NCBI GenBank assembly: GCA_000165345.1
Contig: CM000434.1
Coordinates: forward strand, 704,001 to 768,000
Reading direction: 5' to 3'
DNA length: 64,000 nucleotides
Within the stretch, counting starts at the first letter, position 1. Each line of letters opens with the position of its first letter. This document shows, piece by piece, positions 1-63,624 of the stretch. Under the pieces are notes generated by a model. That model made no database searches and was not told where the DNA came from. It worked only from the letters and a program-made list of their open reading frames with translations. A program made the position numbers and the translations under genes.

Positions 1-2223
1 GAAGGTGGAGTTGTGACTACTCCAGAATATCCAGGACATTTGGATATTCCAGGAGAAACTGGTCCAGAAGATTTTCCACAATATGAGACTCCAGGTTCAC
101 CATATTCTCCAACTCAAACACCAGAACAATTTCCACTTGGCAGTTTCTCAGATAATTGGAAGTCACAATTTGTTGGTACCAAACAATCTGATTTTCTTAA
201 ATTTGGAGTTGATGGGTCTGAATATGAATCAGATCCTGCTGCTAAAGCAGCCTTTTCTAGGTATATTCAGGCAACTTCCAATGGAGTCTCTGATTTTAGC
301 TCTTCCTTAAGGAGTTTATCGGAATGTAAAATAATCGCTGAGAGACACATTATTTTCTTGCAGGCTTTCATTCATCATTTCTCAGCCTTATCAAATATTC
401 AACTACAACCTGAATTATATTGTTTGTTATTCACAAACTCAATGAAGCCAAACATTTTCTCGTTTGTTTCAAATTTGAAAAATTATTTGAACAACAACAA
501 ATATACATTTGAGGAAGAACATTTAGCTCGATCAGTGAATATTGGATTGAACTATTTAGCAACGAAGACATTCACAAGGAAAGACCTTACAGTTACAGGA
601 GTTAAGAAGCTTGTTAAAGAAAATAGAGAATTGGCATTAGAATGTGATGCTGATAATGTCATATTTGCTACTTCTTTATTGCTTTTAACAAACATTTATT
701 CAGATAATCTTGGAATGAGCTCTCAAATCAATTTGGCTGATATTTGTAGTATACTCAAAGGATACCAAGACTTAGAATCAAGAGTACGTGAAATTGTTTC
801 TCTCTTTTACAGAGCAGGTGATGTTAGCAGACACTCATTATTCGATTTGTCAATCTTGGTTAAAGAATCTTTGGAATCAGCATACAGAGCTCTTTCAATT
901 CCATTCTCAGATTACTTCTTAGATACTGACAAAAAAACTCTCAAGAGTCTTACACCAATGAGCACTACTATCAATGTTGATGAAATTATTAAACCAATCG
1001 ATCATGATGATGTGATTAGAACTTCTGATAGATATATTTCTGGTAAAGTTCCAATTCCAGAGATTCCAGGTCCACCAAGCCGTCGTGGAAGCGGTCCTAT
1101 TTCAGATAGAGTCATTCCAACTTCAACTGATGAGATCTTTAAACCATTAAGAACTTCCAAAGATTATCAACCATTTAAAAGAGGTAGTCTATTACATCCA
1201 CCTACCCCAGAGAATCTCCCTGATAAGGCTTCAGGCAGAGGATTTGTAAAATCTTTACAAGTTCACATGAAACCAAGAGAGTATGAGACTGAATTTATAT
1301 ATGGAAGCTCAGGGTTTGTTAGTCCTCAGTTAACTTACTTTAAGAGAGTCTCAGAACGTGAATATAATCATGATAAGAAAATTAAACAAGCCAAAGAAGA
1401 ACAAAAACGTCTTGAGAAGAAGAGAGAACAGAGAATGACACGTGGATACAAGGACTTGAGAGGAGTTAAAGAATTAGATGGTGCTGACGAAAGCGTTTCA
1501 GAATTACCAGATATTTCTGAAGAGCCTTCTCCACTTCCAGAATTTGAAGAGCCAGAAAGAATTATTCCATCCAAATTTGAAACTAAATTACACAAGCTTG
1601 TTCCAAAGAGTAGCAGTATTTACACTCAACCATCACAAAGATTCCATTCAACGCCATTAGCATATACCACTTTGAAACCAATGAAGGGAATGCTTAGTAC
1701 TGAGAGTAGATTGAATTCCGATTTAAGCTCTGAATTAGAGTTGGATGAAGCTTCAGAAGGAACAATTGGTCTTCCTTCTCAAAAAGGAGACGACGCTGCG
1801 GAAAAATCTCATGAAGGAGATGTTTCTGTTTCTGATGAATTTTCAAATCTATCGATTTCAAAGTCTGAAAAAACTCTTACAACTGAAGTTGCTGCTAGAG
1901 AATTATTAATAAAGTGCACAGATTTATCTAGATCACAAAAGAAAAGAGCTCTTAGCTTGTTTAGAGTTCTCAAATACCTATATAAAGGACATACAACTGG
2001 TTGGTATATAACTGCATTCTGTAGAGCTGTGTACTTTGCAGAGAAGGATGTATGCATTTCTAAAGGAGTAAAATCTTTAAATATTAAAGAAATGGCATCT
2101 GAGTGTTTCAATGCTTTAAATAGCTCTCCATTCATTAAAAAAAATCCAGAACTTTCAAATCTAAGTCGTCAAGTATGTTATTCATATTACAAGAAGAGAG
2201 CAGCCACTGTTTGTTTGGGGTAA
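1..2223 (+). CDS. Hypothetical protein, 5'-truncated at the window edge (C-terminal 740 aa)
   Basis: The frame is open from nt 1 (EGGVVTTPEYPG...), so the annotated M at 13 is probably internal. Long uninterrupted ORF with P/S/E-rich low complexity. No recognisable domain. Confidence 0.5.
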   Translation, partial: EGGVVTTPEYPGHLDIPGETGPEDFPQYETPGSPYSPTQTPEQFPLGSFSDNWKSQFVGTKQSDFLKFGVDGSEYESDPAAKAAFSRYIQATSNGVSDFSSSLRSLSECKIIAERHIIFLQAFIHHFSALSNIQLQPELYCLLFTNSMKPNIFSFVSNLKNYLNNNKYTFEEEHLARSVNIGLNYLATKTFTRKDLTVTGVKKLVKENRELALECDADNVIFATSLLLLTNIYSDNLGMSSQINLADICSILKGYQDLESRVREIVSLFYRAGDVSRHSLFDLSILVKESLESAYRALSIPFSDYFLDTDKKTLKSLTPMSTTINVDEIIKPIDHDDVIRTSDRYISGKVPIPEIPGPPSRRGSGPISDRVIPTSTDEIFKPLRTSKDYQPFKRGSLLHPPTPENLPDKASGRGFVKSLQVHMKPREYETEFIYGSSGFVSPQLTYFKRVSEREYNHDKKIKQAKEEQKRLEKKREQRMTRGYKDLRGVKELDGADESVSELPDISEEPSPLPEFEEPERIIPSKFETKLHKLVPKSSSIYTQPSQRFHSTPLAYTTLKPMKGMLSTESRLNSDLSSELELDEASEGTIGLPSQKGDDAAEKSHEGDVSVSDEFSNLSISKSEKTLTTEVAARELLIKCTDLSRSQKKRALSLFRVLKYLYKGHTTGWYITAFCRAVYFAEKDVCISKGVKSLNIKEMASECFNALNSSPFIKKNPELSNLSRQVCYSYYKKRAATVCLG

Positions 2224-41072: not shown

Positions 41073-43310
41073 ATGACTTTTGCAAGACCAATTGTTAGTG
41101 TTTTTCCATCAAACGACTCTACAAAGGCTACTTCCAGTATTCCTTTGCCAACAGTCTTTGTTTCTCCATTAAGACATGATCTTGTTCGTTATGTTTTCAC
41201 CAATATGTCAAAGAACAAGAGACAAGCTTATGGTGTTTCCACTAAAGCAGGTAAGTTCTTGAAGATTCAACAGAGGAAATGTAAATGATTTGGTCATTCG
41301 TGATGAAAGCTATTGATAGGGACATCTGAATTTTCCATGATGTTCTGAAGAAATATTCATTATTTCTAAGATAGTAGATTCTGATCATTATGTATATAAT
41401 ACGCCACTTTTACATTTCAACTATATTAATATTATCCAATTGTCTTGAACATCGATTAATTTCTATATTCCACTTTTAGGCCACCAACATTCTGCTGAGT
41501 CATGGGGTACAGGTAGAGCTGTTGCTCGTATTCCTCGTGTTTCTGCTTCTGGTACTAGCAGATCAGGTAAGTTAATGGTAAAACTCATGTTAATAAATGG
41601 CTTGCTCAGTTGATTGGTTAATCTATTTAACTGGGATTAAATAGTATTATTTTCCAAGTGGTGCCATTCTTTTTTTATGGATATAAAGAGAATAACCGGG
41701 ATGAGAAAATTTGATGATCAATAAATATGGAGAGCTTTTTGGTAGACAAATGATGTTAATAAGTCGTGCACCACACTGAATATTTTATGTGGATAAAACG
41801 ATTCTTTGCTGCCTGTTTTAGAGAAAAAGGAGAAATCTTTTGTATCTATAACAGGTAGTCTGACTAACCAATAACTTTCCAGTGATGGTGGATCGTCAAT
41901 GAAACTAGCAGTGTTCATTTTAACATGAGATATCACTTGATTCTAAATCAACTTTATTTTTTCAACTTTTCAATTATAGGCCAGGGTGCTTTCGGTAACA
42001 TGTGTCGTGGTGGTCATATGTTCAGTCCAAACAAGACTTACAGAAGATTCCACAGAAAGATCAATACCACTGAAAAGAGACATGCAGTTGCAGCAGCCAT
42101 TGCAGCTACCGGTTGCCCATCTTTGGTAATGGCTCGTGGACATCGTATCAATAATGTACCAGAATTACCTTTGGTTATATCCAATGAAATCCAAAACATC
42201 AACAAGACTAGTACTGCTGTTGAATTCTTCAAGAATTTCGGTAAGTTTTGAGATTGTATTTGGCCAAAAGATATTTAAGATGATGAGGTACTATGACAAG
42301 CAAGTTTTGTATCTCTTGCTTTTTATTATATGAATGGGAATTTGGTAGTGGTCTGTATTTGATGGATTCCTGTTTCTATATTTGCATTTTTTGGGATGAT
42401 TTTGGAAGTTACCCAGCTCATACTGAAATATGTAACTGTTGAGAATGCTTCCTTTATTTTATATCTGAAATTATGCAGGTAAATTTCTCTGCCTTCTTAA
42501 CTCGTAAGAAAGTGAGAAATAGAAACATTCATATATATTTGTTACTTTATCATCTTTATGATCATGATCATTCCATTTGTCAATAATATTGGCCAAATAT
42601 ATTTATTATATAACCATTAGTAACAATTTTTAACTTAATATCTTTTTAATTCAATAGGTCTCGAAGAAGAAATGAAGCGTATTGAATCTTCAATAGCTAT
42701 TAGATGTGGTAAGGGTAAGATGAGGAATAGAAGAAGAGTCTGCGCTGTAGGACCATTAGTTGTTTATGCTGAAGATAATGGTATTGTTAAGGCCATGAGA
42801 AATATCAAGGGTGTCGATACATGCTCTGTTGAACGTCTTAATCTCTTGAGACTTGCTCCAGGAGGTACATTTGGTCGTCTTACAATCTTCACAAAGGGTG
42901 CCATTAAGAGACTCCAAGAGATCTATGGTAGCTATACTCATGGCTCATCTTCAAAGGTTGGATACACATTGCCACGTCCAGCAATGACTAACGCTGATAT
43001 TACCCGTATCATCAACTCCACTGAAGTTCAATCTGTATTAAGACCATTACGTGGATTCAGATGCATGGGTAGTATGGGTAGATCCAAGACTAAGAAGAAT
43101 AACTTGACAAATCTCACAAAGAGAGCATGCTTGAACCCAGCATACACCAGCCTCAGAAAGAGCGCAAGATTAGCCCAAATCCCAGGTACTAGACTCCATG
43201 CAATTAAACAACGCCAAAAGGCAGCAAACCGTGCACTCAAGAAGTCAATCAAACAGAAATCTGAGACAGCTCTTGCTGCTAAGGCCTTATCTGGTCATAA
43301 CCAAAATTAA
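41073..43310 (+). CDS. RPL4: 60S ribosomal protein L4 (uL4), four exons: 41073-41250, 41480-41566, 41980-42240, 42658-43310
   Basis: Spliced product [11 protein letters not shown]...[53 protein letters not shown]...[33 protein letters not shown]... matches L4 throughout. All three introns begin GTAAGT and end TTTTAG/TTATAG/CAATAG. Each exon is phase 1. 392 aa. Confidence 0.9.
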
Positions 43311-59725: not shown

Positions 59726-60531
59726 CCGGTAATGCAAAATTTGCAAGTAAATTACGTGTGAAGCAGATGGATAGTGAAAATGGAAGCAACTATTAATTAA
59801 TTATTTAAAATAATGTAATAATTTTTTTTGGGAGAAAGAATTTTTTTTGAGTTGAGAAAATAGTGAAATAAAAGTACCAAAATTAAGGTTAAATAAAATT
59901 AGCAATGATAATATTGTCATAAATATTACGAAAAGTAATATTATAAGTGAAATTTGGAGTGGGAATATTTTAATGGGGAAAAAATCCAATAAATTGAACA
60001 GAAATTTTCAAGGCTCGTAAAAAAGTGTTAACATTTTTTCGATAGTGAGCCCCCCACAGAAATCAATAAATAGGGGGAAAATAAAGAGTGTCTATTAGGC
60101 TTAAAAGATTTATATATTTTTCTCACTGTTAAAATAAAAGTACAAATATAAAAGGAAAGTTGAAAGAATTGAAGAGTTTTTTAACTACCAACTGTTTGTA
60201 TTCTTGTTTAACACGGCCTTAGAGGTGGCAAAGAGGCAGAGAAAATAAGATAGTATTCACACGGGAGAATTTTGTGAAGTGATTCAAGAAAAATAAAGGG
60301 TATAAGGCTTTAAGATATTAATTTTTAGTTAATTGGTTTATATATTATATAATTTATGGAAACATAGTATAATTTGAATACAGGGACTTCAAATACAATC
60401 TAGAGAAGATTTAAAGTGTTTATACAAAACATAATCTTTTTTTTTTGAATATAAAATAGAGATTTATGATCCATTTTTCTTTGAAATACAGATTTTAAAC
60501 GTGATTCCATTGCATGAAAGGCCCGTGAGAA

Positions 60532-63500
60532 ATGTCAACAAGAGGAGTTTTGCAAAAGTATAACATGAAGTCATTGAAAGAACAAAAGATTGACACAACA
60601 TTATCGGGGAAACAAAAGACTGAATGTAAAGTAAAAAGCAGCAGCAAATTTACAGGCGAAGTATTGATAACAAGTAAGAATATATCTAGCCCAACACAGA
60701 GTCTGGAAAAGAGTGATTCACTACCTGTTTCATCAAGTGATAATTCTAGGATTGAAAGTAGTGTTCCAACTGCAGCAAATAGTCCAACTTCATATTCAAG
60801 TTCAATGGCTTCAATTCCAGATGAGCGAGGCGATATTTACGAAGCCTTGGATAGAGTTCCAGATGATGGAAAAATTCTGGACCATGATTTACATCTTTTA
60901 AATAAGGCTTTACATCCTGAACCATTTGGTGTTCTTGGGTATCAAAAGTTTGGTGATGATGGCCAATACGAATATTATGTCGTTAGAGCATGGGTCAGGA
61001 ATGCTAGAAGAATTCAAATAAAAGCAATTGACTATTCATTTTCTTCTATTGGTACTAACAATACGCCTGTTGAAATGGAACAAAGATATATTGATGGTAA
61101 TCCAAGTTGGATGTTTGAGAAAGCTTTTAAAACACTTAAGGAAAAGATACCTACTTGTAGAACCCACTTTTGTGGATATGACGAGAATTTGGAGAATTCT
61201 AATATTGAAAATAAGAGAATTGGAAACCAAAGCAATAAGGATGATTATTCAACCGATAAGTTTTCAGATGTTGGGTCTGAAGCTAATAATAAAGTAAACA
61301 AAAATACGATTGTTTCTAAGAAAAAAGAAATTACTGCCGATTGTAACTCGATTGTGGAAAAAACATATTCTAATGTTATTGTAAATACTCTGAATAAATC
61401 GAAAACCAATTTGGTTCCGAACAAGGAATCGCATAAAGGAAATGAAATGCCTAAGCTTGAATTGAACCAATCAAATTTGATGTCTTCAAATATTCCGAGA
61501 AATAAAAATATTAGAAGTGAAGCATGCAGTTCAGATGAAGCTTGTAATTGTTATGTGCATGACAACATTAACTCTCAAGAGTGTGTGAGAAAATTATATT
61601 ACGAATTGCTTGTTGAATACAATGGAGATGATTCTGGTAAAGTCTATGCTATTAGAGATACCTATTCGTTTGGATTACTACTATCAAATGGTGATATGGA
61701 GCTTTTCCAATCTGGTAGTTGTTGGCATGTCGACAATATTCTAGGTTCCCATATTATTGAATACAATGGAGTAAAAGGGGTAAGGTTCTCAGTTTGGGCC
61801 CCCCATGCCAAATATGTTCGTGTTGTTGGAGACTGGAATTCTTGGGATGGAAGAGTAAATCCCATGCGATTTCGTCATGGCGTTGGAATCTGGGAGTTGT
61901 TTATTCCGCATCTAGGCCCAGGTGAGAAGTATGGATATGAAATACACTCTCAGTCAAACGATGTGTTTGTTAAAATTGATCCATATTCACAAGAATATGA
62001 GGTTCCTCCACGATATGCTTCCATTATTAGTGCTTGTGATGATTCATACAAAGATGAGACTGACCGTTTTCGTTGGGAGGATCAAGAATGGATAAAGAGA
62101 AGAGAGCAATTGGGTTCCAAAGGTGAGATGAGAAGGCAACCTATGTCAATTTACGAGGTTCATCTTCCAAGTTGGATGAGGAGAGAAAATGGAGACTACT
62201 TGGGATATAGAGAGATTGCCGAGAGACTTGTTGAACACGTTAAAAACCTTAACTTTACTCACGTTGAGTTCCTCCCTCTTGCTCAACATCCATTTGAAGG
62301 AAGCTGGGGATATCAAGTAACTGGACAATATGCTCCATATAGTCGTTTAGGTACTCCTGATGATTTTAAATACTTGGTTAACGAGCTTCACAAGGCCAAG
62401 ATTGGAGTCTTTATTGACTTTGTTCCTGCTCATTTTTGCAAGGACGCTTGGGGATTGGTATATTATGATGGAACTCCGACTTACGAATATGGTGATCCAA
62501 GAGAAGGTGAACACAAGCAGTGGGGAACTGCTGTATTCAACTTTAGAAGAAATGAAGTTCGTTCATTCTTGCTTGGAGCTGCTTACCATTGGTTGCGTCG
62601 TTACCATATTGATGGGCTAAGAATTGATGCTGTTAGCTCAATGTTATACAGAAATTACTTAAGACCGAATGGTGAGTGGATCCCCAATGAGTTTGGAGGA
62701 GATGCAAATCTTGAAGCTGTTAGCCTTCTACAAGAGCTTAACTGGGTTATTCATAAGGAATTCCCTGGTGTTTTCACTATGGCTGAGGAAAGTACTGCTT
62801 GGCAGGGAGTTACACACAAGGATGGAGGACTTGGGTTTGATGCTAAATGGGACTTGGGATGGATGAATGATACTCTAAGTTATTTGTACACCCCCCCTGA
62901 TAATAAAAGCAGTAAGCATAATAAGCTTACATTTAGAGGGCTTTACATGTCTCATGAACATTGGGTTTTGCCATTAAGCCACGATGAAGTTGTTAATGGA
63001 AAGGGAAGTTTACTTGATAAGTGTGGATTCACTGGAGCGCCTTATATGGATAGAATTAGGACATTAAAAACGCTATTTGGATATCAGGTTGGAATGCCTG
63101 GCCGTCCTTTGCTTTTCCAAGGGGCTGAAATTGCTCAAGGTAGAGAGTGGAAGGAGAATAGATCTGTTGATTGGCATGAAGGAGAGGAGGACGTGAGAAA
63201 AAAAGTCTGTATTTTCCTAAGCGATTTATTAGCTGTTTACAAGAATAACGTCAGTCTCCATGCTGGAGATGATGAATCTTGGAACTTCCAATGGGTAGAT
63301 TGTGAAAACTCTCAAGATTGTATTATTGCTTTCCTTAGAAAGTACAAAGAATGGTATAACGACGTAGTGGTCGTTTGTAACTTTAGCTCAAGGCGATACA
63401 ATCATTATCCAATTGGAGTTCCTCATGGAAAGGAGTGGCTTGTAATGCTTAATTCGGATGATTGGAAGTATGGAGGAGCAATGTTTGGTCCTGGAAACAA

Positions 63501-63624
63501 CTCCACTGTTCATGCTTCTCACGGAGGGAGAGTTGGCTGGGATTATTGTCTCTGGATTGACATACCCGAGTTCTCTTGTATGTATTTAAAGCCTTTATTT
63601 AATCCTAATGAAAATGATTCATAA
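60532..63624 (+). CDS. glgB: 1,4-alpha-glucan branching enzyme, bacterial GlgB-type (GH13), with a roughly 400-aa low-complexity N-terminal extension
   Basis: From about nt 61730: VRFSVWAPHAKYVRVVGDWNSWDG...GSWGYQVTGQYAP...IDFVPAHF...YYDGTPTYEYGDPREGEHKQWGTAVFNFRRNEVRSFLLGAAYHWLRRYHIDGLRIDAVSSMLY...EWIPNEFGGDANLEA...MAEEST...GGLGFDAKWDLGWMNDTLSY...LPLSHDEVV.GK.S. Collinear with E. coli GlgB at high identity, including the catalytic Asp/Glu/Asp positions. Confidence 0.85.
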   Translation: MSTRGVLQKYNMKSLKEQKIDTTLSGKQKTECKVKSSSKFTGEVLITSKNISSPTQSLEKSDSLPVSSSDNSRIESSVPTAANSPTSYSSSMASIPDERGDIYEALDRVPDDGKILDHDLHLLNKALHPEPFGVLGYQKFGDDGQYEYYVVRAWVRNARRIQIKAIDYSFSSIGTNNTPVEMEQRYIDGNPSWMFEKAFKTLKEKIPTCRTHFCGYDENLENSNIENKRIGNQSNKDDYSTDKFSDVGSEANNKVNKNTIVSKKKEITADCNSIVEKTYSNVIVNTLNKSKTNLVPNKESHKGNEMPKLELNQSNLMSSNIPRNKNIRSEACSSDEACNCYVHDNINSQECVRKLYYELLVEYNGDDSGKVYAIRDTYSFGLLLSNGDMELFQSGSCWHVDNILGSHIIEYNGVKGVRFSVWAPHAKYVRVVGDWNSWDGRVNPMRFRHGVGIWELFIPHLGPGEKYGYEIHSQSNDVFVKIDPYSQEYEVPPRYASIISACDDSYKDETDRFRWEDQEWIKRREQLGSKGEMRRQPMSIYEVHLPSWMRRENGDYLGYREIAERLVEHVKNLNFTHVEFLPLAQHPFEGSWGYQVTGQYAPYSRLGTPDDFKYLVNELHKAKIGVFIDFVPAHFCKDAWGLVYYDGTPTYEYGDPREGEHKQWGTAVFNFRRNEVRSFLLGAAYHWLRRYHIDGLRIDAVSSMLYRNYLRPNGEWIPNEFGGDANLEAVSLLQELNWVIHKEFPGVFTMAEESTAWQGVTHKDGGLGFDAKWDLGWMNDTLSYLYTPPDNKSSKHNKLTFRGLYMSHEHWVLPLSHDEVVNGKGSLLDKCGFTGAPYMDRIRTLKTLFGYQVGMPGRPLLFQGAEIAQGREWKENRSVDWHEGEEDVRKKVCIFLSDLLAVYKNNVSLHAGDDESWNFQWVDCENSQDCIIAFLRKYKEWYNDVVVVCNFSSRRYNHYPIGVPHGKEWLVMLNSDDWKYGGAMFGPGNNSTVHASHGGRVGWDYCLWIDIPEFSCMYLKPLFNPNENDS

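Follow-up and report, generated by a model that had tools for sequence, protein, structure and literature searches.

Bacterial-type glycogen branching enzyme of Cryptosporidium hominis with a predicted N1 domain divided by a genus-specific insert

An open reading frame close to the end of the 64,000-nucleotide stretch of DNA analysed here (the window) raises two questions: how a branching enzyme that resembles bacterial GlgB came to lie among eukaryotic genes, and what its long N-terminus consists of. Cryptosporidium oocysts and sporozoites store their energy as amylopectin. The frame (60532-63624, forward strand) starts with ATG, encodes 1030 aa and ends with a stop codon at 63622-63624 according to the ORF listing. 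It is genuine, its product being identical (100% identity over 100% of the length) to the NCBI entry ‘Glycogen branching enzyme [Cryptosporidium hominis]’, a protein encoded on a C. hominis contig of 1.3 Mb. We are therefore highly confident that this is the annotated C. hominis starch (amylopectin) branching enzyme, of the bacterial GlgB type. The gene was already annotated and its horizontal origin was published in 2004, so the observation itself is not new; the enzyme (GBE) has also been placed on the metabolic map of C. parvum oocysts (PMC3542205). The eukaryotic context described in the initial annotation was borne out, as the neighbouring genes on this eukaryotic chromosome encode RPN11, a HARP-like protein, Gpi16, an NOP2/Sun methyltransferase, a Rab GTPase, a DEAD-box helicase, RPL4, a Sec7-TBC protein and Rad9. 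No second branching-enzyme paralogue or other GH13 gene was detected in the window among the 20 other ORFs scanned, out of its 24 ORFs of at least 200 aa.

Family assignment and predicted activity

The whole protein scored above the curated cutoffs of the GlgB equivalog models. NF003811 (NCBIfam) gave 758.8 bits (cutoff 741) in an end-to-end match (residues 388-1020 of the protein, profile positions 2-618 of 619), and NF008967 and TIGR01515 gave 732.9 bits (cutoff 577) and 681.3 bits (cutoff 464), respectively. The placement in GH13_9 or GH13_8 was judged by similarity to the solved members of each subfamily. In phmmer searches against the PDB, the GH13_9 enzymes scored 576 bits (Cyanothece BE1, E 1e-171) and 526 bits (both E. 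coli and M. tuberculosis), compared with 125 bits for rice BEI and 116-117 bits for human GBE1, both of the GH13_8 type and only 23-25% identical to the query. The Cyanothece enzyme has been labelled GH13_9 (PMC8695356). The Foldseek comparison of the AF2 model pointed the same way, with E values of 1e-83 to 1e-62 for solved bacterial and cyanobacterial GlgBs versus 1e-45 for GH13_8. Moreover, no GH13_8-type eukaryotic sequence was present among the 114 homologue matches or among the 150 best representatives listed. These results support the earlier assignment of the enzyme as a bacterial-type (GH13_9-like) GlgB, and the best similarity was not to the animal, fungal or plant GBE/SBE enzymes of the eukaryotic GH13_8 type. 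The reported collinearity with E. coli GlgB was likewise observed, but the term ‘high identity’ was generous, the E. coli structures being about 38-42% identical to the branching enzyme.

All the GlgB motifs quoted in the initial annotation were found, namely WGYQ (residue 592), DFVPAHF (629), IDGLRIDAV (693, with GLRIDAV at 695), MAEEST (750), GLGFD (766) and LPLSHDEVV (813, with LSHDEVV at 815). The GH13 conserved regions I-IV and the Asp/Glu/Asp triad were present and invariant or nearly invariant in 77 homologues (R697 and A751 invariant; D699, E752, H817 and D818 nearly invariant). In the AF2 model, the catalytic domain consisted of alternating strands and helices with pLDDT above 90. The roles of the triad residues in GH13 enzymes are well established and are the basis for the assignment of Asp699, Glu752 and Asp818 (Table 1). 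The enzyme would act by the retaining GH13 double displacement, in which Asp699 would serve as the nucleophile, Glu752 as the acid/base and Asp818 as the transition-state stabiliser; an alpha-1,4 chain would be cut and the segment rejoined via an alpha-1,6 bond, and the resulting branches would be those of the amylopectin granules, the energy reserve of the parasite. We infer the branching activity from the equivalog status and from the probable Toxoplasma orthologue, TgSBE1; the recombinant TgSBE1 branches amylose with a Km of 127 ug/mL, and its knockout abolishes amylopectin (PMC9241709).

Table 1. Features of the branching-enzyme locus (positions within the window; residues of the 1030-aa product)
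Feature	Position	Strand	Basis
In-frame 4-codon mini-uORF (ATG AAA GGC CCG TGA)	60514..60528	+	Read from the sequence; ends one codon ahead of the main ATG
Ser/Lys/Thr-rich leader, predicted disordered, residues 1-97	60532..60822	+	AF2 pLDDT <50; composition
Predicted GlgB N1 beta-sandwich, first and larger part, residues 98-206	60823..61149	+	AF2, alignment, hhalign
Asn/Ser/Lys-rich insert in N1 loop, predicted disordered, residues 207-350 (144 aa)	61150..61581	+	AF2 pLDDT <50
Predicted last N1 strands (357-363, 372-374) and linker helix to CBM48, residues 351-400	61582..61731	+	AF2, phmmer, hhalign
CBM48 (N2) carbohydrate-binding module, residues 404-486	61741..61989	+	Pfam PF02922, 81.4 bits, E 6e-23
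GH13 (beta/alpha)8 catalytic domain, residues ~537-915 (approximate bounds)	62140..63276	+	Pfam PF00128, AF2, motifs
Asp699 codon, predicted catalytic nucleophile, GH13 region II	62626..62628	+	Position within GLRIDAV
Glu752 codon, predicted general acid/base, GH13 region III	62785..62787	+	Position within MAEEST
Asp818 codon, predicted transition-state stabiliser, GH13 region IV	62983..62985	+	Position within LSHDEVV
Alpha-amylase C-terminal all-beta domain, residues 921-1021	63292..63594	+	Pfam PF02806, 66.1 bits; AF2 strands 919-1021

Composition of the N-terminal 400 residues

The first 400 aa had been described as an S/N/K-rich addition without a bacterial counterpart. The second part of this description had to be abandoned, as residues ~98-206 and 351-400 corresponded to the GlgB N1 domain according to hhalign, AF2 and structural superposition, and the first part holds for residues 1-97 and 207-350 but not for residues 98-206 and 351-400, whose composition is ordinary. 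The hhalign comparison with the N-termini of distant bacterial GlgBs gave a probability of 98.4% (E 4.7e-15) over template positions 10-125 of 126; the match comprised residues ~113-205 and 352-400 and jumped over the stretch between them. The alignment to bacterial GlgB N-termini revealed L135 and G136 as invariant and P131 and R152 as nearly invariant, and Y357, D376 and Y378 were also conserved with bacteria. The phmmer alignment to Cyanothece BE1 began at query residue 356, equivalent to chain residue 104, upstream of CBM48. The full AF2 model had a pTM of 0.79, with pLDDT above 90 for residues 98-206 and 351-1021; taken separately, residues 98-206 reached 91-97, with strands across residues 101-202, and residues 351-400 reached 82-95. 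In Foldseek, the target-normalised TM scores against full-length GlgBs that include N1 were 0.94 (V. vulnificus) and 0.92 (M. tuberculosis).

The Pfam GlgB_N model (PF22019) scored only 14.4-17.4 bits on the N1 region (profile positions 3-46), versus a gathering threshold of 27, and residues 98-400 stayed below this cutoff even after the insert was spliced out. The GlgB_N match of 29.5 bits obtained with the whole protein lies on the CBM48 region (residues 402-485). The N1 homology is therefore claimed from the profile-profile and structural evidence instead, by which residues ~98-206 and 351-400 are predicted to form jointly a canonical GlgB N1 domain. Together with Pfam, hhalign and AF2 superposition, this gives the type 1 domain order of N1, CBM48, catalytic barrel and C-terminal beta domain. 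The domain map is thereby corrected: much of what was taken for an extension would be a normal GlgB N1 split by a genus-specific disordered insert, and the lineage-specific parts predicted to be disordered are only the 97-aa leader and the 144-aa insert.

The leader contains 25% Ser and 11% Lys. Among seven Cryptosporidium species, its residues 1-75 are variable and residues 76-97 are conserved, including the genus-invariant motif VPTAANSPTSYSSS at residues 77-91. A hydropathy scan detected no signal or transit peptide (maximum Kyte-Doolittle value over 11 residues, 0.45), and the missing signal sequence suggests a cytosolic location. The insert (17% Asn, 12% Ser and 10% Lys) is hypervariable and rich in indels among Cryptosporidium species, with invariant edges, and is flanked by invariant Cys/His residues (H212 and C214 on one side; C332, C338, H343 and C351 on the other). 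It is missing elsewhere, other apicomplexans, chromerids and bacteria having 0-35 residues at this site. Pfam searches with the leader, the insert and the insert-spliced N1 identified no carbohydrate-binding module, zinc finger or targeting domain, and returned only the sub-threshold GlgB_N match. The conserved Cys/His segment 332-351 was modelled by AF2 with low confidence (pLDDT of 37-45). It is conceivable, although we regard it as unlikely, that the leader and the insert form a Cryptosporidium-specific regulatory module in N1 that tunes branching. In such a module, the Cys/His cluster bordering the insert would be a candidate metal site or redox-sensitive staple, VPTAANSPTSYSSS with its Ser84-Pro85 would be a candidate phosphorylation or docking site, and amylopectin branching could be switched or tuned, e.g., while oocysts form. 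A link between N1 and the length of the transferred chains has been reported (PMC6339891).

Origin of the gene and alternative explanations

Orthologues were found in six other Cryptosporidium species, Toxoplasma, Neospora, Eimeria, Cyclospora, gregarines and Vitrella. The phylogeny was evaluated with our own bootstrapped neighbour-joining (NJ) trees based on Kimura distances, in which the taxon sampling is biased by the search tools and the cyanobacteria are represented by one sequence, Cyanothece BE1. Apicomplexans and chromerids grouped with 96-99% bootstrap, and the clade that also includes dinoflagellates reached 100%. A group of Planctomycetota was sister to this alveolate clade with 70-97% bootstrap, falling to 70-76% with added taxa; two metagenomic proteins, P0213 and P0231, fell between the myzozoan and planctomycete clades, and the deep bacterial nodes had bootstrap values of 0-30%. 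The genomes nearest to the closest bacterial homologue were two Planctomycetota MAGs (60% identity versus at most 51% for others). Dinoflagellates carry the same clade, with Planctomycetota as the first bacterial matches, and an exhaustive HMMER search returned no bacterial clusters closer than the planctomycete-like ones. The NJ trees thus suggest that the nearest living bacterial relatives are the GlgBs of Planctomycetota, which may represent the donor lineage. Horizontal acquisition, as proposed in the initial annotation, is the explanation generally accepted. The enzyme was described as a eubacterial transfer that Toxoplasma also possesses by Huang et al. (2004; Genome Biol 5:R88, PMC545779). 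A single ancient bacterium-to-eukaryote transfer would have preceded the divergence of dinoflagellates, chromerids and apicomplexans.

The proposal of a plastid lineage with an endosymbiotic origin, in which the red-algal-derived plastid ancestor of Myzozoa, and not a bacterium directly, would have supplied the gene to the nucleus, was not upheld, and we consider it improbable. The best match among solved structures is indeed cyanobacterial (Cyanothece BE1), the clade is common to lineages with an ancestral plastid (dinoflagellates, chromerids and apicomplexans), and the possibility was raised by Huang et al. (PMC545779), according to whom, however, the phylogeny lends a plastid origin little direct support. 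The ranking of PDB matches depends on which enzymes were crystallised. In the NJ trees, the single cyanobacterial sequence did not appear as sister to the alveolate clade; it grouped with other bacteria, never with the clade, and was far from it (distance of 0.87, versus 0.66 for the planctomycete-like P0030). The HMMER result also speaks against a plastid source. Plant plastid branching enzymes belong to GH13_8, and the plastid enzyme rice BEI was only a weak match of that type. An assembly contaminated with bacterial DNA, or a transfer that occurred very recently and only into Cryptosporidium, would be in line with the strong resemblance to bacterial GlgB and with the GC content of the catalytic part (0.41), which is somewhat above the window average. 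Against this, the gene is flanked on the same contig by eukaryotic genes such as RPN11, Gpi16 and Rab, its third-position GC (0.23-0.33) is typical of the host genome, and the protein contains low-complexity inserts in the Cryptosporidium style; the orthologues are 63-88% identical throughout Apicomplexa, chromerids and dinoflagellates, compared with about 52% for the best bacterial homologue. Synteny and distribution effectively refute both.

Two further readings concern the product of the gene. The long N-terminus might be an annotation artefact, with translation starting at an internal Met, e.g., Met389 (nt 61696), so that 1.2 kb ahead of it would be untranslated; residues 1-97 and 207-350 are of low complexity and poorly conserved, and the 4-codon uORF lies directly upstream of ATG 60532. 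This is highly improbable, as the 400 N-terminal codons are open at ~30% GC (chance of about 2e-15) versus 13 and 64 stops in the other two forward frames, and the indels among the seven Cryptosporidium species are all in frame. In addition, conservation across apicomplexans extends to residues 98-206 and 351-400, which are homologous to the bacterial N1 and fold onto the remaining enzyme with pLDDT above 90, and a start at Met389 would remove this conserved domain. Alternatively, the GlgB fold might serve mainly another activity (hydrolysis, 4-alpha-glucanotransfer or non-catalytic granule binding), with branching carried out by a second paralogue on the same chromosome. Huang et al. (PMC545779) reported two branching-enzyme genes on chromosome VI, and several activities are possible among GH13 enzymes according to a 2026 review. 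We regard this as very unlikely, as the equivalog-level GlgB models were passed, conservation extends to all the catalytic and region I-IV residues, and both branching of amylose in vitro and a requirement for amylopectin have been documented for the probable T. gondii orthologue. The reading that we prefer is a full-length branching enzyme acquired by ancient transfer from a bacterium.

Comparison with known branching enzymes

The branching enzyme is a textbook case of ancient bacterium-to-eukaryote gene transfer, recognised since 2004. The domain map, the evidence for a transfer older than the dinoflagellate-apicomplexan split and the nearest bacterial relatives, which point to Planctomycetota and not to cyanobacteria or plastids, are modest additions that leave the understanding of the gene unchanged. 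A bacterial-type branching enzyme without a human GH13_9 counterpart could in principle be a selective drug target, which has likewise been recognised since 2004.

The enzyme described by Huang et al. (2004) belongs to the same family in a sister species, its gene likewise lies on chromosome VI, and the conclusion regarding its eubacterial origin, shared by T. gondii, is the same. TgSBE1 (TGME49_316520; Yang et al. 2022, PMC9241709) falls in the same apicomplexan GH13_9-type clade and is the probable orthologue; the T. gondii match P0008, probably TgSBE1, was 71% identical over a 666-residue core. The Toxoplasma enzyme likewise has the order N1, CBM48, catalytic and C-terminal domain with a long N-terminal leader, but it has ~35 residues at the site of the 144-aa Cryptosporidium insert and lacks both the H212/C214...C332/C338/H343/C351 cluster and the VPTAANSPTSYSSS motif.

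The bacterial type 1 GlgBs (E. coli 1M7X/4LPC, M. tuberculosis 3K1D, V. vulnificus 9U77 and Cyanothece BE1 5GQW) share the fold, domain order and catalytic motifs, and their N1 is homologous to that predicted here. Superposition on these enzymes gave TM scores of 0.92-0.96 and rmsd values of 1.6-7 at 29-42% identity (29-32% for the chains that contain N1). Unlike them, the Cryptosporidium enzyme is eukaryotic and nuclear-encoded, its N1 is broken by the 144-aa insert predicted to be disordered, and it carries the similarly disordered 97-aa leader. In the classification of Wang et al. (2019; PMC6339891), type 1 enzymes have N1 and N2, and type 3 enzymes have ~100 extra residues before N1; the leader resembles that of the bacterial type 3 in length only. 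The GH13_8 enzymes (human GBE1, 4BZY; rice BEI, 3AMK) catalyse the same reaction and share the GH13 barrel and CBM48, but their similarity to the Cryptosporidium enzyme is much lower (116-125 bits and 23-25% identity), and they differ in subfamily and in the type of N-terminal domain.

Identity and genomic setting of the branching-enzyme gene

The ORF and all of the motifs quoted in the initial annotation were present, and both the Pfam domains and the NCBI equivalog-level GlgB models were in agreement with them. The latter covered residues 388-1020 end to end and all scored above their curated cutoffs (NF003811, 758.8 versus 741; TIGR01515, 681 versus 464), and the observation is therefore confirmed. 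Along its full length, the protein showed 100% identity to an NCBI entry, 'Glycogen branching enzyme [Cryptosporidium hominis]', located on a 1.3 Mb contig.

Features of the branching-enzyme ORF and its protein
Feature	Position	Strand	Source
Branching-enzyme ORF, ATG-initiated, 1030 aa	window 60532-63624	+	ORF listing
Variable leader zone	residues 1-75		seven-species Cryptosporidium alignment
Motif VPTAANSPTSYSSS	residues 77-91; window 60760-60801		
Conserved block	residues 76-215		seven-species Cryptosporidium alignment
Cys/His residues H212, C214 / C332, C338, H343, C351	window 61165-61173 and 61525-61584		
Hypervariable, indel-rich stretch	residues ~216-331		seven-species Cryptosporidium alignment
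Second conserved block	residues 332-400		seven-species Cryptosporidium alignment
CBM48	residues 404-486		Pfam, 81 bits
WGYQ motif	residue 592		protein sequence
DFVPAHF motif	residue 629		protein sequence
IDGLRIDAV motif	residue 693		protein sequence
MAEEST motif	residue 750		protein sequence
GLGFD motif	residue 766		protein sequence
LPLSHDEVV motif	residue 813		protein sequence
Alpha-amylase catalytic domain			Pfam
Alpha-amylase C-terminal domain	residues 921-1021		Pfam

The proposed assignment to the bacterial GH13_9 type, rather than the eukaryotic GH13_8 type, was borne out by a search against all PDB sequences and by model superposition. Solved GH13_9 enzymes (Cyanothece BE1, M. tuberculosis, E. 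coli) scored 526-576 bits, whereas the GH13_8 enzymes (rice BEI, human GBE1) scored 116-125 bits; the Cyanothece enzyme has been classed as GH13_9 (PMC8695356). The AlphaFold2 model (77-sequence alignment, pTM 0.79) gave target-normalised TM values of 0.92-0.96 against bacterial GlgBs and 0.82-0.83 against human GBE1 (23-25% identity).

The eukaryotic context was likewise evident from the neighbouring ORFs. All of these are ordinary eukaryotic genes: RPN11 lies immediately upstream, followed by a HARP-like protein, Gpi16, an NOP2/Sun methyltransferase, a Rab GTPase, a DEAD-box helicase and RPL4 and, more distantly, by a Sec7-TBC protein and Rad9. The matches listed included orthologues from six further Cryptosporidium species, at 68-88% identity; over the C-terminal two thirds, identity was 63-74% for those from Toxoplasma, Neospora, Eimeria, Cyclospora, a number of gregarines and the chromerid Vitrella. 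The third-position GC of the gene was host-like (0.23-0.33). Contamination or a recent transfer is excluded by these neighbours, the spread of orthologues and the third-position GC.

The window is AT-rich (GC of 0.23-0.41 per 2 kb), with an unusually high GC skew of 0.417 at 20-22 kb. Eight ORFs of 377-1506 aa at 13-25660 had no Pfam match at E <= 0.001. A single 1291-aa ORF at 26336-30211 (-) joins a Sec7 Arf-GEF domain (residues 287-465) to a TBC Rab-GAP domain (1095-1245). For the ORF at 42672-43310 (+), the match was restricted to the final third of the Ribosomal_L4 profile (positions 131-189) and the L4 C-terminal domain; the N-terminus of RPL4 must be encoded by another exon, and the region, initially described as intron-poor, thus probably has at least one intron. 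The C. canis orthologue (P0003, P0286 and P0287 are KAJ1609268, KAJ1613156 and KAJ1612088) is named in NCBI after the adjoining gene ('26S proteasome-associated Mov34/MPN/PAD1-like and JAB domain-containing protein'), which looks like an annotation slip.

Composition of the N-terminal 400 residues

Translation of this region is indicated by the chance of 400 open codons (~2e-15 given the composition), by 13 and 64 stops in the other two forward frames and by every inter-species indel in the seven-species alignment keeping the frame. An internal start at Met389 (nt 61696) was rejected, as it would remove a conserved, confidently folded domain. The C. ryanae protein begins at the equivalent of Met12, and the predicted start in C. 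hominis is Met1 or Met12. An in-frame upstream ORF of four codons (ATG AAA GGC CCG TGA, 60514-60528) stops one codon ahead of ATG 60532.

The first 400 residues had been considered to lack a bacterial counterpart, which held for residues 1-97 and 207-350 and failed for the rest: approximately 160 of them are a canonical N1 domain, the N-terminal beta sandwich of GlgB. When aligned with apicomplexans, chromerids and bacteria, residues ~113-205 and 352-400 matched the bacterial domain (L135 and G136 invariant; P131, R152 and Y357 nearly so), and the stretch between ~205 and 352 had no counterpart beyond Cryptosporidium. In the AlphaFold2 model, strands 101-202 and 357-374 jointly formed the sandwich; pLDDT exceeded 90 at 98-206 and 351-1021 and fell below 50 only at 1-97 and 207-350. 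Full-length N1-containing GlgBs superposed over 917-938 aligned columns (TM 0.94, V. vulnificus 9U77; 0.92, M. tuberculosis 3K1D). Profile-profile comparison of alveolate N-regions with N-termini of distant bacterial enzymes, from which the nearest bacterial relatives had been excluded, gave 98.4% probability (hhalign; E 4.7e-15, 116 columns, template 10-125 of 126) and skipped the insert cleanly. Pfam GlgB_N alone reached 14-17 bits versus a cutoff of 27, matching only the first half of the profile whether or not the insert was spliced out.

Lineage-specific sequence is therefore confined to a 97-aa leader (25% Ser, 11% Lys) and a 144-aa insert in an N1 loop (17% Asn, 12% Ser, 10% Lys). Other apicomplexans likewise have long leaders, but their insert site spans just 10-35 residues. 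Kyte-Doolittle analysis detected no hydrophobic segment in the leader (maximum 0.45), giving no sign of a signal or plastid-type targeting sequence, and Pfam found no carbohydrate-binding or other domain in leader or insert. By default, both parts are taken as disordered expansions that the protein tolerates, as is typical in AT-rich genomes of apicomplexans. Less probably, they may have a regulatory or metal-binding role, given two features. Within the otherwise variable, disordered leader, VPTAANSPTSYSSS hardly varies among Cryptosporidium species and holds a Ser-Pro site (S84-P85), making it a candidate phosphorylation motif or short linear motif. The Cys/His residues (C-x5-C-x4-H-x7-C) flank the base of the disordered insert, are invariant in 7/7 Cryptosporidium species and are missing from other apicomplexans; they could form a metal site or staple. 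Their segment (residues 212-214, 332-351) matched no Pfam family and has low AlphaFold2 confidence.

Origin of the enzyme

An exhaustive HMMER search covered 1.84 billion representatives. Among the best 150, the apicomplexan clusters were followed by a eukaryotic cluster (P0117, 54%), a bacterial-looking 730-aa cluster (P0118, 54%) and bacterial tandem double GlgBs (P0116, P0119), past which identity was <= 48%. In these metagenomic tandem proteins (1178 and 1215 aa), the second GlgB copy is intact, the first having lost its catalytic motifs. P0117 and its relatives (P0288-P0305) are dinoflagellate proteins (Cladocopium, Durusdinium, Effrenium, Polarella, Symbiodinium, MMETSP transcripts), and their first bacterial matches were MAG proteins named Planctomycetes or Planctomycetota. 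Among 185,579 species-representative genomes, the two nearest to P0030, the bacterial homologue closest to the Cryptosporidium protein (52%), were Planctomycetota MAGs (60%; others <= 51%).

Neighbour-joining trees (Kimura distances, 570-596 columns, 194-365 taxa, 100-200 bootstraps) united apicomplexans and chromerids (96-99%), these with dinoflagellates (100%), and all three with a Planctomycetota clade (P0316, P0317, P0320, P0330, P0337, P0343, L001, L002) at 97%, 76% and 70% with growing, tool-biased sampling. The suggested horizontal origin holds; the plastid lineage offered alongside it does not. Cyanothece BE1, the one cyanobacterial sequence (transcribed from the PDB-search alignment), fell outside the grouping (distance 0.87 versus 0.66), and rice BEI, which represents plastid enzymes in the solved structures, was a weak match of GH13_8 type. 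Huang et al. (PMC545779) also remarked on the scant direct support for a plastid origin. The search ranking and trees therefore make a single ancient transfer from a planctomycete-like lineage to the myzozoan ancestor the best reading of the sequences, and the clade common to dinoflagellates, apicomplexans and chromerids dates it before the myzozoan radiation.

Predicted activity and known enzymes

All four domains of the GlgB architecture were present, as were the conserved GH13 regions I-IV with Asp699, Glu752 and Asp818. From established GH13 chemistry and by analogy with the Toxoplasma enzyme, we infer retaining double displacement, in which an alpha-1,4 chain would be cleaved and then moved to a 6-OH, a transfer that would build cytosolic amylopectin. 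The enzyme and its origin had been described before: Huang et al. 2004 (PMC545779) reported it as a eubacterial acquisition shared with T. gondii, GBE is part of the metabolic map of the C. parvum oocyst (PMC3542205), and Isosphaeraceae planctomycetes were already among the closest bacteria in the tree of Yang et al. 2022 (PMC9241709). In the N1/CBM48 typology of bacterial enzymes by Wang et al. 2019, N1 is tied to transferred-chain length (PMC6339891). In Toxoplasma, recombinant TgSBE1 branched amylose and its knockout abolished amylopectin (Yang et al. 2022, PMC9241709).
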